A DNA stretch of 64,000 nt from Micropruina sp. (GCF_047602385.1 NZ_JASGHL010000001.1:692360-756359), one strand, 5' to 3'. Counted from the stretch's first letter, positions 42,916-48,164 are shown. Notes: generated by a model not told the origin, from the sequence alone. A program made the numbers and translations.

Positions 42916-44283
42916 ATGAGCGACTACACCGTCGTCAACCCGGCCACCGGGGAGACCCTGGCCCGTTATCCAGGCTCGACCGACGCCGAGGTCGAAGCCG
43001 CCCTCGCCGCCGCGGACGCCGCCTACCGCGACTGGGGACGCAACTCCACCCCCGCCGAGCGGGCCGAGGCGTTGCGGGCGGTGGCCCGGCTGCACCGCGA
43101 GCGCCGCGACGAGCTGGCCGCGATCATCGTCCGGGAGATGGGCAAGCCGTTGGAGGCGGCGCTCGGCGAGGTCGATTTCGCCGCCGACATCACCGAGTAC
43201 AACGCCGACCACGTCGACGACTTCACCGCCGATCAGCCGCTGTCGATCGACGGCGACGGCACCGCGCTGATCCGCCGCTCGCCGCTGGGCGTGCTGCTCG
43301 GCATCATGCCGTGGAACTTCCCCTACTACCAGGTGGCCCGGTTCGCGGCGCCGAACCTGGCGGTCGGCAACACCATCCTGCTCAAGCACGCCCCGCAGTG
43401 CCCCGAGTCGGCGGCCGCGATCGCGTCCATCTACGCCGACGCGGGCTTCCCGGACGGCGCCTACGCCGACCTGCGGCTGACCAACGACCAGGCCGCCGCC
43501 GTCATCGCCGACCCGCGGGTCCAAGGCGTGTCGGTCACCGGCTCGGAGCGGGCCGGCGCGGCGGTCGCCGAGGTCGCCGGCCGCAACCTGAAGAAGGTCG
43601 CCCTCGAACTCGGCGGCTCCGACCCGTTCATCCTGCTCAGCACCGACGACCTGGACGCCACCGCGCAGGCCGCCGTCGACGCCCGGCTGGACAACACCGG
43701 CCAGTCCTGCAACGCGGCGAAGCGGTTCATCGTGGTGGACGGCCTCTACGACGCGTTCCTGGAGAAGTTCGCCGCCGGGATGGCGGCAGCGACGCTTGGC
43801 GACCCGTTCGCCGAGGACACCGTGCTCGGCCCGCTGTCCTCGTTGGCCGCCGCCGAACGGCTGGAGAAGCAGGTGGACGCCGCTCTCGCCCAGGGCGCAA
43901 CCCGGGTGGTCGGCGGCGACCGGGACGGCGCGTTCTTCCCGGCGACGGTGCTGACCGGCGTCACCCCCGAGATGGACGCCTACCGCGAGGAGTTCTTCGG
44001 CCCGGTCGGCGTGGTCTACCGGGTCGCCGACGAGGACGAGGCCGTCCAGGTCGCCAACGCCACCCCGTTCGGCCTCGGCTCGTACGTGTTCACCACCGAC
44101 GCCGAACAGGCCGAGCGGGTCGCGAACAAGATCGAAGCCGGCATGGTGTACGTGAACCTGGTGCTGGCTGACGAGCCGGCGCTGCCGTTCGGCGGTGTCA
44201 AGCGCAGCGGCACCGGACGCGAGCTGGGCCTGCTGGCCGCCGACGAGTTCGTCAACAAGAAGCTGATCCGGGTCGGCGCCTGA
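42916..44283 (+). CDS. Second aldehyde dehydrogenase (Sad/GabD1-like)
   Basis: [54 protein letters not shown]. Confidence 0.88.
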
Positions 44284-44293
44284 CCCCAAGAAC

Positions 44294-44351
44294 CCCTCCC
44301 TAACTATCTCTGCCCTCCCACCTGTGGGAGGGCAGAGATAGTTAGGGAGGG
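44294..44351. repeat. Perfect 28-bp inverted repeat with 2-nt spacer (terminator, cruciform or MITE-like)
   Basis: CCCTCCCTAACTATCTCTGCCCTCCCAC (44294-44321) CT GTGGGAGGGCAGAGATAGTTAGGGAGGG (44324-44351); TTTT at 44355-44358. Confidence 0.95.
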
Positions 44352-44370
44352 CCCTTTTGGTCGGCGGTGG

Positions 44371-46056
44371 TCAGGCTGGCCAGAGGTCGACGACGAATAC
44401 CTCGATGCCGCGCACGACCTTGCCGGTGCGGTCGTAATGCTCGGTGGCGTAGTCGTCCAGGGACAGTCCGCGGGTGCTCCGGTAGCCGACGGCTACCCGC
44501 ACCAGGTAGCGCCCGCCGGCCGCCTCGGGCAGCGTCACCGTCTTCTTCCCGGGCAGGCCGTCGATGCTCCATACCCGCAGGTCTCGGTCGTCGAGGGTGA
44601 TCGGCCAGACGCCCAAGGTCTCCATCAGGACCTCGCCGGGACTCTCCACCGGGGGCGGTTCCGCGAGATAGGCGCTGACCTGAACCTCGGGCGCATGCAG
44701 GTCCGCCGCCGACTCGAGATCGATCCGGCCGAGCTGAATGCGCACCGGGCCGTACTGCTCGGGCTCTTCGTCGGCGTAGCTTGCGTCGTCGGTGGCGATC
44801 ACGATGGTCCGATAGCTGGCGTCCACCTTGCGTTCGATGAGCCGGGCGACCGGGCTGACCGAATCAGCGGACGGAGCATCGGGCCGAACCCGCGCCGAAC
44901 CGCCACCGCCCCGCCGGGAGCCACTCGGTACGGACGCCGGCCAGAGATCGACGATGAACCGCTCCCATCCGGTGAGCGGCTCACCGACCTGGCGGTGTTC
45001 GCGAAGCCGCTCCGCCAGGGTGGCGCCACCCAGGTCCGGATAGCTGGCCACGACCCGCAGCCAGTACCTGCCGTCCGGTGTCTTGGGCAGCCGCAGTCGC
45101 GGTCCTCGGGCCTGATAGACCGCGTCGCTCCAGAATTCGAGCGTGCGACGCTTGAAGCGCACCGGCCAGGTGCCGAGCGGCACGGTTGTCCCTTCGGCTG
45201 TCGGCTCCGATGGCGGCGGTTCGGACGTGTAGGCGCTCAGCTGGATTTCCGGCCGATGATCGTGGGCGGCCGATACCAGTCCGATCCGTCCCGGCTGAAC
45301 CCGGACCCGGCCGCGGTCGCGTCCCCAGGCGTCGCGCAGGGCCGCCCGGACACCGGCTATCTCGATCGGTCCGTAGCCGGCGCCGATCCGCTCTTCGACG
45401 ACCCGACCGTAGAGTCCGGCCGGCTCGTCCGCTTCGTCGCTCGACCACAACTCGCGGTACCCAGGCGGCCTTACCGGCTCCTCGAAGGACAACGCCCAGC
45501 TGCTGGGCAGCCGCGCCGCGAACGGGTCGGGCCAGAACTCGACCAGAAAGCGCTCGCCACCCTCCCGGCGGTCGACCGAGACCCGCAGCACGTACTGGCA
45601 TCCCCTCGAATGCGGGAGCCGCAACAGTTCGGCGTCCCCGCTTTCCAGGTCACCGCCCCACACCTCGACAGTGCGTCGCCGGAAGGTCGTCCGCCAGCTG
45701 CCCAGGGTCTCCATCGGCGCGCTGGGCCCGCGATCGACCGGCGCCGGCGGGGCGTCGTATGCCCTCAGCTCCACCTCGGGCGGGTGATCATCTCCGGTGC
45801 AGACCAGGCCCACCCGGCCACGCTGGACCCGGACGGGTCCGCGATTCTCTCCCCAGTCGTCGCGGAAAGCCGCCTCCCAGTCCTCGGCCAGCTCGATGAC
45901 TCCGTCCCGCGCGTTCAGCTCACGCTCAACCGTGTGACCCACGAGAGTCGCCGGCGGGCGACCATCGTCCATCCCGGACGACGCAGCGCCACGACCCGCG
46001 AATATGGCCGCACCCAAGCGATTCGACATGTCACGCCAATCGCTTCCGAGCATCAC
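44371..46056 (-). CDS. Hypothetical protein of three tandem homologous domains, each ending E-x-F-x-V-[ED]-[FL]-W-P
   Basis: 561-aa ORF; repeats at about 45529-45945, 44938-45414 and 44371-44850 share G[PR]VR[VI]QxGR, HxPE[VI], AYxxxPP, LGxW, LP, Yx[LV]RV; start codon uncertain. Confidence 0.8.
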   Translation of the reverse strand: MMLGSDWRDMSNRLGAAIFAGRGAASSGMDDGRPPATLVGHTVERELNARDGVIELAEDWEAAFRDDWGENRGPVRVQRGRVGLVCTGDDHPPEVELRAYDAPPAPVDRGPSAPMETLGSWRTTFRRRTVEVWGGDLESGDAELLRLPHSRGCQYVLRVSVDRREGGERFLVEFWPDPFAARLPSSWALSFEEPVRPPGYRELWSSDEADEPAGLYGRVVEERIGAGYGPIEIAGVRAALRDAWGRDRGRVRVQPGRIGLVSAAHDHRPEIQLSAYTSEPPPSEPTAEGTTVPLGTWPVRFKRRTLEFWSDAVYQARGPRLRLPKTPDGRYWLRVVASYPDLGGATLAERLREHRQVGEPLTGWERFIVDLWPASVPSGSRRGGGGSARVRPDAPSADSVSPVARLIERKVDASYRTIVIATDDASYADEEPEQYGPVRIQLGRIDLESAADLHAPEVQVSAYLAEPPPVESPGEVLMETLGVWPITLDDRDLRVWSIDGLPGKKTVTLPEAAGGRYLVRVAVGYRSTRGLSLDDYATEHYDRTGKVVRGIEVFVVDLWPA

Positions 46057-47184
46057 TCACACCTGCGCCAGCGCCTGGTCCAGATCCGCCCAGAGGTCCT
46101 CGACGTCCTCAAGTCCGACCGACAGCCGGACCAGCGAGTCCGGCACGGTCTCCGGCTCGGACGCGATCCGCCGCCGCCGCTCCAGCAGCGACTCCACCCC
46201 GCCCAGGCTGGTCGCCGGCACCCACAGCTGCACTCCGTGCACCAGGCGCTCGGCGGCGTCGATCCCCCCGACCGGCTCCAGTGCGAGCATGGCGCCGAAG
46301 CCGCGCATCTGCCGGCGGGCCAGGTCGTGACCGGGGTCGTCGACCAGCCCCGGATAGCGCACCCGGTCAATCGCCGGATGCGCGTTCAGCCGCTCGGCGA
46401 GCACCCCGGCGGTGGCCTGCTGGCGCTCTAGCCGGACCGACAGCGTCCGCAGGCCCCGCAACACCAGCCAGGCCTCCATCGGGCCGAGAATCGACCCCTG
46501 CATGGTGCGATACGACTGCAGCCGGTTCAGCAACTCCTCGTCGCGGGTCACCAGCGCCCCGGCAACGACGTCGGAGTGACCGGAGAGGTACTTGGTCGCC
46601 GAATGCAGCACCACCGAGGCGCCCAGATCGAGCGGATTCTGCAGCAGCGGGGTGGCGAAGGTGTTGTCGACGCCGATCCGGACGCCGGACGCCGCGGCAC
46701 CCTCGGCGAGGGTGACCAGGTCGGCGACCTGCAGCAGCGGATTGGTCGGCGACTCCAGGATCAGCCAATCGGCGCCGGGCAGGGCGGCCAGCACGGCGTC
46801 GGTGTCGGCGATGTCGACGGTGCTGAGCGAGATCCGGCCGGCGGCGGCCAGCTGCCGGGCCAGCGCCAGCATGGTGTTGTAGGCGCTGTCCGCCATCACC
46901 AGCCGGCCACCTGGTTCGATCAGGTCGAACAGCGCCGCGCCGGCCGCCATCCCGGAGGCGAAGCACAGCGCCGTGCCGTGCTCGAGGACGCCGATCGCGT
47001 CCTCCAGCGCGCGCCAGGTCGCGTTGTTGCTGCGGCCGTAGACGCCGATATCGGTGGCGCCGAGCGGTCCGCTGGACAGGTAGGTCGAGGTCAACTCGAT
47101 CGGTGGGCTGACCGGTGCCCCGGTCTGGTGCGCCGGGCGTCCGGCGATCACCGCCCAGGTATCCGCAGACCAATCGCCGCTCAT
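46057..47184 (-). CDS. Trans-sulfuration PLP enzyme (cystathionine gamma-synthase/lyase family)
   Basis: [57 protein letters not shown]. Confidence 0.93.
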
Positions 47185-48164
47185 GCTGTCGTCCTCTCCT
47201 CGGCGTCCCACCAGCGCAGCACGCGGGTGGCGTACAGGGTCAGCCACGGTGACGGCTCCCCCACCGGGACATCCACTGCGAACCACTCCTGCCCGCGGTG
47301 GTGGACGTCCTGGCGCCAGCTGCCGTCCGGTTGCCGCTTGGAACGTACCAGTCCGACCGCCTCGGCCAGCCGCGGATCAGGACCGGTGCCGTCCAGGGCG
47401 GCGGCGCGCCGGAAGTGGTCCAGGGCGCTCAGCGCGGTGTACTTCCACCGGAACGGGTAGCCGAATGAGCCCACCCAGTCGCCGATCGGCTCGCCGGTGG
47501 AGAGGCGGTACAGCAACCGGCGGCTGAGCAGGTACTCCTCGGCCGGACGCCGCAGCGCCGCGAGCCCCTCGTCGTCGCCGAAGTGTGCCTGCCGGTAACG
47601 CAGCGCCTCCAGAACATGCAGCGTCGAGTGCACCGACGAACGGACCGAGCCGTTCTCCCACTCGCAGTTCCAGCCGCCGTCGCTCAGCTGATGCTCGGCG
47701 AACCAGGCGAGCAGGCCGGTCACGTCGGCACCCAGCCAGGTGCCGGTGGCCAGCGTGTAGCCGTTGATGCAGCAGTCCACCTCGCCGCCCCAGTACGGCA
47801 GGTCGTCGTACTCCCAACGCGAGTTCCGGGCCAGCTTCTCCGCGGTCCCGGCCAGCACGGACGCGTCCACACCCCACTCGCGGAGCATCTTCAGCGTCCA
47901 GGTGGTCGCCGTCCAGGGCTGACCCTGCTGGCCCTCGCGCCACGCCGTGGGGTGACCGGACGCCGGAAAGTATGCCCCGCCCGCCCACTGTCCGTCGGCG
48001 TCCTGGAGTGCGAGCAGGCGCGCTCCCAAGCCCTGGGTGGTGACTCGGGCCCGGGTCGCTTTCCACACTGTTTCGTCGGCGCCGGCGAGGTCGCGTTCCA
48101 CCTGCCAGCGCAGGGCCGGATCAGTGGCCAGGAGCCAGTCGATCGGGTTGATCGGATCGGACAT
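47181..48164 (-). CDS. Squalene-cyclase/prenyltransferase-fold protein of unknown function
   Basis: QW-like repeats QDADGQW, QLSDGGWNC, RQPDGSW; EVDCCING; no DxDD motif seen. Confidence 0.8.
   Translation of the reverse strand: MSDPINPIDWLLATDPALRWQVERDLAGADETVWKATRARVTTQGLGARLLALQDADGQWAGGAYFPASGHPTAWREGQQGQPWTATTWTLKMLREWGVDASVLAGTAEKLARNSRWEYDDLPYWGGEVDCCINGYTLATGTWLGADVTGLLAWFAEHQLSDGGWNCEWENGSVRSSVHSTLHVLEALRYRQAHFGDDEGLAALRRPAEEYLLSRRLLYRLSTGEPIGDWVGSFGYPFRWKYTALSALDHFRRAAALDGTGPDPRLAEAVGLVRSKRQPDGSWRQDVHHRGQEWFAVDVPVGEPSPWLTLYATRVLRWWDAEERTTA

Follow-up and report, generated by a model that had tools for sequence, protein, structure and literature searches.

Three fused ComJ-like domains in an orphan protein of Micropruina: a probable diverged branch of the inhibitors of NucA/NucB-type DNases

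Introduction

The genome of Micropruina sp. (GCF_047602385.1) contains, within a 64,000-nucleotide stretch of one strand that we call the window (NZ_JASGHL010000001.1:692360-756359; all positions below are counted from its first letter), a gene at 44371..46056 on the minus strand whose product is built of three diverged copies of a single domain. This triple gene occupies a slot between a gene for a pyridoxal phosphate (PLP) enzyme and a convergent aldehyde dehydrogenase gene, in a window whose G+C content is about 70%. The original prediction, made from the sequence alone, described the three repeats and considered them "ComJ-like or polymorphic-toxin immunity-like". Here, we examine the architecture, the predicted fold, the genomic surroundings of the relatives and the evolutionary history of this gene, and suggest that its units are strongly diverged domains of the type found in the B. 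subtilis inhibitor ComJ.

ComJ, also known as Nin, is encoded beside nucA and inhibits both NucA and NucB in lysate-mixing assays, by a mechanism that is unknown (PMC5758888). The DNases of the NucB type are themselves of applied interest for the dispersal of biofilms (PMC5758888). A toxin–immunity pair of this kind, Tox-ComI/Imm-ComJ, was described in 2012 by Zhang, de Souza, Anantharaman, Iyer and Aravind (PMC3482391), who gave the conserved motifs of Imm-ComJ as W, F[DE], PF, Y and Y, and who listed Tox-ComI, but not Imm-ComJ, for the actinobacteria. Orphan immunity genes and multiple immunity genes ("poly-immunity") are, according to the same authors, a general feature of polymorphic toxin systems (PMC3482391).

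Results

Architecture of the Triple Gene

The open reading frame (ORF) can be read as 561 amino acids from a GTG at 46056 to the TGA stop codon at 44371-44373. The probable start is the ATG at 46053, which has an AGGTG a few bases ahead of it and follows the TGA of the PLP gene after 3 nucleotides; in the orthologue alignment, the related proteins begin at this same methionine. The protein of 560 or 561 residues comprises three units of about 160 amino acids each, all encoded on the minus strand. The alignments place the first ComJ-like unit at residues 37-178 (45523..45948) and the second at residues 214-375 (44932..45417), and the model and the orthologues place the third at residues 401-561 (44374..44856). 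Linker 1 (residues 179-213; 45418..45522) carries the conserved sequence DPFAA..PSSWALSFE..RPxGYREL, and linker 2 (residues 376-400; 44857..44931), as delimited in the orthologue alignment, is rich in Gly, Ser and Arg.

The three units can be aligned end to end with one another by BLASTP at 34-40% identity (36.9% with an E value of 8e-29 for units 1 and 2; 34.4%, 2e-25, for units 1 and 3; 39.6%, 1e-32, for units 2 and 3), a similarity that is far beyond chance. The single ORF with three diverged repeats that had been proposed is thus borne out by E values of 2e-25 to 1e-32, and all of the motifs originally quoted for the units recur in the unit alignments. The residues that characterize the domain family (R45, H55-x-P57, P68, W97, Y118-x-x-R121, E153 and W160-P161) are retained in all three units. 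Neither a transmembrane helix nor a signal peptide was found in the triple protein, as had been stated, the maximum Kyte–Doolittle mean over 19 residues being 0.67.

Two details of the earlier description require revision. What had been noted in units 2 and 3 as a "variable insert" ahead of the last strand is in fact a conserved helix (residues 134-145 in the model of unit 3). The more distant orthologues have this helix in unit 1 as well, and we conclude that about 22 amino acids were deleted from unit 1 in the lineage of the window. Of the linkers, which had both been called low in complexity, linker 1 is instead well conserved (ratio of nonsynonymous to synonymous substitutions, dN/dS, 0.05-0.29), whereas linker 2 evolves faster (dN/dS from about 0.6 to more than 1 depending on the pair).

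Predicted Fold

An AlphaFold2 model of unit 3 (modelled stretch 44374-44859, starting at residue 400), built on an alignment of 21 sequences, is of high predicted quality (predicted local distance difference test, pLDDT, 92.5; predicted template modelling score, pTM, 0.89) and is mostly beta with a single helix. When this model was compared by Foldseek with the Protein Data Bank (PDB), the best match was B. subtilis ComJ (4mqd; E value 3e-6, probability 1.00), an entry described as "inhibitor of the DNA degrading activity of NucA"; its chains A and B matched with E values of 3e-6 and 7e-6 and template modelling (TM) scores of 0.57/0.68, the value of 0.68 being that on the target. The second match was CgnJ (6i86; E value 2e-4, TM score about 0.48). 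Beyond these two proteins nothing in the PDB was found below an E value of 0.4, the next and unrelated match having an E value of 0.43, and no viral structure matched the unit 3 model. Unit 3 is thus predicted to adopt the three-dimensional fold of ComJ, and the original suggestion to model and compare the repeats has yielded a clear solved relative. The model of the full-length triple protein, for which the alignment held only seven sequences, is poor (pLDDT 50.6), and the arrangement of the domains relative to one another is consequently not readable from it.

DNase Genes beside the Single-Domain Relatives

In a HMMER search of 1.84 billion representative proteins, a profile of the unit returned only 23 matches, among them stand-alone proteins of 150-175 amino acids. 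Three large proteins with cadherin, PKD and calycin repeats (P0022, P0025 and P0028) matched weakly and were set aside as generic beta-sandwich noise. On all five of the metagenome contigs that are informative, the remainder being too short, the single-domain relative lies directly beside a gene for a DNase of the NucA/NucB family (PF14040). The relatives P0010 and P0012 are located downstream of NucA/NucB genes of 437 and 418 amino acids, respectively, each with a 4-nucleotide overlap, and P0024 is similarly placed downstream of a 453-amino acid DNase gene; P0027 is convergent with a DNase gene of 467 amino acids; at P0014, an IS3 element interrupts the DNase gene, whose last 25 codons still border the homologue. 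The match P0023 is a read-through that joins a nuclease fragment and a ComJ-like domain. This check of the surroundings of single-domain homologues, which the original prediction had proposed, together with the fold of unit 3, upholds its comparison with ComJ and with immunity proteins.

The same association is found when one starts from the DNase. At five of the six NucA/NucB loci sampled from Streptomycetaceae plasmids, the family profile recognizes the neighboring "hypothetical protein", with bit scores of 31, 30, 19, 15.5 and 7.6 in a search of six sequences; all five of these neighbours are acidic, and four end in [FY]-x-[IVL]-x-[FLV]-W. One such partner of a NucA/NucB gene on a Streptomyces plasmid (L054:2938-3810) combines the ComJ-like domain with a C-terminal DUF6924 (E value 1.6e-28), a hint that DUF6924, too, may belong to the immunity-type modules. 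When the plasmid sequences were added to the unit family profile, the broadened profile matched 57 of 401 Actinomycetes genomes, in 30 of 175 genera, and at 7 of the 29 best loci a DNase domain lies within 1.5 kb; six of these seven are small stand-alone ORFs. In four other Propionibacteriales genomes no family member lies near the NucA/NucB genes, and the link therefore holds for only a subset of these DNases.

The two full-length linked DNases that were examined, L014 (beside P0010) and L022 (beside P0012), possess a hydrophobic Sec-type N-terminus, a region of about 270 amino acids and a C-terminal PF14040 domain. Their last 120 residues, which include the DNase domain, have an isoelectric point (pI) of about 10. 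The single-domain relatives are all acidic (pI 4.1-5.4, and 4.1-4.7 for all but one), and we count this complementarity of charge in favor of an inhibitor.

Among 401 Actinomycetota genomes, canonical ComJ (PF11033) exceeded the cut-off in only one, in a marginal and dubious stop-containing match at the end of a contig. The DNase loci of Priestia and Burkholderia that were examined contain no ComJ gene; at the Burkholderia locus an ORF that appears by eye to be SUKH-like lies downstream.

Distribution and Variants of the Family

The triple protein itself has a very narrow distribution and is without a match in Pfam (E≤10), NCBIfam, PADLOC, PHROGs or the sequences of the PDB. When 5.8 billion proteins were searched by means of a word index, no more than six full-length relatives came to light, with identities of 60-97%, one being named Micropruina sp.; the matches in genome collections are all to metagenome-assembled genomes of Micropruina, and an alignment-based word-index search added almost no further relatives. 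When 61 related genomes were searched, the triple gene was found in 5 of the 22 Micropruina genomes and single-unit paralogues in three more; a three-unit gene was not found in the rest of the family and order, and genome G051 gave a weak match (E value 7e-5). One of the single-domain orphans, in Micropruina G019 (L019:184-3376), lies directly upstream of genes whose translations resemble hsdM and hsdS of type I restriction–modification systems, which suggests a defence-island setting.

The ComJ-like family occurs in about 14% of the sampled Actinomycetes genomes; the domain is unannotated and its members are recorded only as "hypothetical protein". Pfam gave no match at E≤1 for 10 single-domain relatives, and in the ComJ-like genes of the five Streptomycetaceae plasmid members no ComJ match was found at E≤10.

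Some members of the family are fused to other sequences. In three of them the ComJ-like domain is followed by C-terminal pentapeptide repeats (PF00805, E values 1e-27 to 1e-34; L078:1270-2637, L080:776-2425 and L085:823-2226), and either part could plausibly be an inhibitor module directed at nucleases or DNA. In a distant subgroup (L066, L070, L074, L076 and L081) the domain stands at the C-terminus of open frames of 488-636 amino acids, whose real start codons are hard to place with certainty in DNA of such high GC content; the upstream part appears to be multi-pass hydrophobic and is followed by a Cys-containing region (…RFLC…GRHLCA…ICP…), and neither a Pfam match nor a nearby DNase was found for these five.

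Descent and Selective Constraint

The original prediction had reported no toxin gene in the window, and this absence extends to the whole genome and to the genus. In profile searches in which the B. subtilis positive control scored, PF14040 was not found in the window's genome, which is 99.75% complete, nor in any of the 22 Micropruina genomes, and there is no nuclease remnant near the triple gene. The triple gene is therefore an orphan: it is an immunity-type gene without a cognate toxin, intact in about six lineages, absent from most Micropruina and hence variably present among close relatives.

In a maximum-likelihood tree each of the three units forms its own fully supported clade across species, so that the triplication is older than these species. 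Units 1 and 2 pair as sisters (support 95/92), and unit 3 shares an unresolved group with P0010, which is nuclease-linked, and with the clade containing P0012; these two nuclease-linked relatives lie among the three unit clades. The dN/dS ratios of the individual units (Nei–Gojobori; dS from 0.12 to about 1) are mostly 0.23-0.47, three pairwise values being higher (0.58-0.76), and the units of the intact triple genes are under moderate purifying selection.

A Variable Slot between a PLP Enzyme Gene and an Aldehyde Dehydrogenase Gene

The upstream border of the triple gene is the gene for a Cys/Met-metabolism PLP enzyme (46057..47286, minus strand), which is conserved at all loci with the triple gene and is also found without it. 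The other border is the convergent aldehyde dehydrogenase gene (42916..44283, plus strand). In Micropruina the slot between them (44284-46056 in the window; also L001, L029, L032, L033, L034 and L059) is a small variable islet that contains, depending on the species, the triple gene, a rifampin-phosphotransferase-like gene (PPDK_N/Rph_4th/PEP-utilizers domains), a gene for a beta-lactamase-like serine hydrolase, remnants of these, or nothing. The window has the triple gene by itself between the two borders. In L001 and GCA_009612815.1 the triple gene is followed by the rifampin-phosphotransferase-like gene, and in G003 by the beta-lactamase-like gene. The slot of G004 holds the rifampin-phosphotransferase-like gene and no triple gene; that of G009 holds a remnant of unit 3 and then a broken beta-lactamase-like gene; and in G011 it is an empty site of about 95 bp.

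Discussion

A Probable Diverged Branch of the ComJ-Type Inhibitors

The fold match to ComJ, taken together with the DNase genes that adjoin the relatives, leads us to place the family within the known Tox-ComI/Imm-ComJ pair, as a strongly diverged branch in the actinobacteria that is unannotated. With a probability of roughly 0.6, each unit of the triple protein is a ComJ/Nin-like inhibitor domain directed against NucA/NucB DNases and the triplet is an orphan antidote. It would most likely be a stand-alone protection against the DNA-cutting toxins of neighboring bacteria.

The scenario that we envisage starts in other actinobacteria from a single domain encoded beside a very basic DNase that bears a signal peptide, usually downstream of it with a 4-nucleotide overlap; this domain would presumably bind the DNase domain and block it stoichiometrically. 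In an ancestor of Micropruina three copies of the domain would have come to be joined in a single cytoplasmic polypeptide, with units 1 and 2 arising from an internal duplication and unit 3 representing an older or separate copy. Each unit might still bind and block a DNase domain of the NucA/NucB type, as Nin does, so that the triple protein could serve as a cytoplasmic decoy or antidote against those DNases of competitors in the same activated-sludge communities that may enter the cell. The pentapeptide-repeat fusions, with their DNA-mimic fold, indicate that the fusion of nuclease-directed modules has recurred in this family. The divergence of the three units may widen the range of DNase variants that are recognized. 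A more ambitious version, in which each unit has diverged to neutralize a different secreted actinobacterial NucA/NucB variant and the protein is a three-in-one broad-spectrum antidote, is offered only tentatively and is in our opinion doubtful. If it were correct, the Sec-secreted DNases with their N-terminal region of about 270 amino acids would be bacteriocin-like weapons that enter neighboring actinobacterial cells, and the unannotated ComJ-like family of the sampled Actinomycetes would be the matching defence.

Several observations weigh against an inhibitor of this kind. Neither the triple protein nor its relatives reach the gathering score of PF11033, and since that profile matches no member, the homology to ComJ is carried by fold and genomic context. 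Unit 3 is acidic in all of the orthologues, but unit 2 is basic in seven of seven (net charge +2 to +8, pI 9.5-10.9), and unit 1, with a net charge of -8 in the window, has one of +3 to +5 in distant orthologues and is basic in three. A basic unit would not complement a DNase domain of pI 10 and would be an odd partner for it; unit 2 may bind another target or pack against the acidic unit 3. The original idea of a poly-immunity triplet is complicated accordingly by the contrast between the basic unit 2 and the acidic single-domain relatives, and it is an inference. Many of the relatives found with the broadened profile have no DNase gene as a neighbor, and in some cases the domain forms the C-terminus of a membrane protein, so that the fold is not used solely for nuclease immunity. 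Finally, the linked DNases contain no other Pfam domain and no recognized delivery domain (Rhs, CdiA, LXG/WXG or adaptors of the type VI secretion system, T6SS); they bear Sec signal peptides and could be scavenging nucleases whose inhibitor protects only the producer. To these points must be added the decay of the gene in some lineages: a frameshift in GCA_009612815.1, seen in two assemblies, splits it into parts of 271 and 303 amino acids, G009 retains only a 58-amino acid remnant and the site in G011 is empty.

Such decay is what would be expected if the nuclease had been lost and the fused immunity gene persisted as an evolutionary relic with little or no function that is being slowly eliminated. 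The lack of a cognate nuclease in the genus, the restriction of the triple form to 5 of 22 genomes and the deletion in unit 1 of the window's lineage are also in keeping with a relic, as are dN/dS ratios of 0.3-0.4, which are relaxed in comparison with housekeeping genes. Nonetheless, we judge a relic unlikely, because the ratio stays below 1 in all units and in every tested pair (the highest value being 0.76, at dS of up to about 1), the frame and the core residues have been kept in six diverged lineages, and linker 1 is strongly constrained; a functionless gene of 1.7 kb would not outlast such divergence. Alternatively, a ComJ-fold scaffold could have been turned to a new function, the binding, rather than of nucleases, of nucleic acid through the basic unit 2 or of the product of the upstream PLP enzyme gene, with which the triple gene is translationally coupled. 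Unit 2 is consistently basic and unit 1 sometimes is. At all loci with the triple gene it follows the PLP gene, stop and start being separated by 3 nucleotides or overlapping; the fold is also found in the CgnJ of the crocagin cluster and at the C-terminus of membrane proteins, and many relatives have no DNase neighbor. G011 and G004, however, have the PLP gene but no triple gene, so that the former does not depend on the latter, which makes a functional tie between the two rather improbable; the acceptance by the slot of unrelated rifampin-phosphotransferase-like and beta-lactamase-like genes fits a hotspot of insertion better than a functional operon, and the closest relatives of the units are nuclease-linked single-domain genes. 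For these reasons, a new function for the scaffold seems to us distinctly unlikely. Far less probable still is a self-protection of Micropruina against an endogenous nuclease of another family encoded elsewhere in its genome. The genome search covered PF14040 only, which leaves some room for it, but no nuclease adjoins the triple gene at any of six loci, the link of the informative relatives is in each case to PF14040 specifically, and most congeners dispense with the triple gene altogether.

Relation to Known Systems

The original prediction regarded the locus as a candidate undescribed system; the pairing of a nuclease with ComJ was, however, described in 2012 (PMC3482391), and what is added here is a diverged branch of it and a new fused architecture. 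Already known are the NucA/NucB nuclease with its ComJ-type inhibitor and the occurrence of orphan or multiple immunity genes; new are the actinobacterial branch that current profiles do not see, the three diverged copies fused in an orphan protein that only some Micropruina species possess, and the reversal of charge in one unit.

With ComJ/Nin (4MQD, PF11033), the Micropruina domain shares the predicted mostly-beta fold and the character of a small protein without a signal, and its relatives likewise adjoin a DNase gene of the NucA/NucB family. It differs in having no detectable sequence similarity, searches with the PF11033 hidden Markov model and of the PDB sequences being negative, in being about 30 amino acids longer with an extra helix, and in occurring as three fused copies in a genome without the nuclease. 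The single-domain loci resemble Tox-ComI/Imm-ComJ in their order of a nuclease gene followed by a mostly-beta immunity gene, but their DNases carry Sec signal peptides and the N-terminal region of about 270 amino acids in place of delivery domains of the Rhs, T6SS or type VII secretion system (T7SS) kind. Poly-immunity loci are gene arrays, whereas Micropruina has one fused polypeptide. CgnJ (6I86) shares the fold as the second-best structural match, but it belongs to a myxobacterial RiPP cluster (for a peptide made on the ribosome and modified after translation) that has no nuclease, it matches more weakly and it has no sequence similarity. Barstar and the immunity proteins of the colicins are nuclease inhibitors that protect the producer and have folds unrelated to the ComJ-like domain; the likeness to them is purely an analogy, in that the relatives studied here would be acidic cytoplasmic inhibitors co-transcribed with basic secreted nucleases.

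Were this placement correct, a family of "hypothetical proteins" that occurs on Streptomyces plasmids and in 57 of the 401 sampled Actinomycetes genomes would receive a name and a testable function as the partner of actinobacterial NucA/NucB DNases, and the ComJ/Nin inhibitor fold would be extended to a new phylum, in sequences too diverged for current profiles to recognize. The Micropruina triplet would be a compact example of immunity domains kept in a single chain without a toxin. If it is active, it would point to a DNase-based warfare among the actinobacteria of activated sludge and would provide three natural specificity variants with which to study how ComJ-type inhibitors recognize nucleases. 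Natural inhibitors of NucB-type enzymes are also relevant to the use of such DNases in biofilm dispersal.

Other Features of the Locus

On the upstream side of the locus, an ORF of 327 amino acids without a Pfam match (47181-48164, minus strand) overlaps the 5′ end of the annotated PLP gene by about 100 nucleotides; it is largely missing from L001, which is otherwise syntenic. Between the triple gene and the convergent aldehyde dehydrogenase gene there is a perfect palindrome with arms of 28 bp (44286..44360). A 26-nucleotide arm sequence, CCCTCCCTAACTATCTCTGCCCTCCC, has 94 matches in the genome with at most three mismatches, mostly in inverted pairs, and the reversed control has 0. The palindrome is thus a copy of a dispersed family of elements similar to repetitive extragenic palindromes (REP-like), and at this position it probably also serves as a bidirectional terminator.

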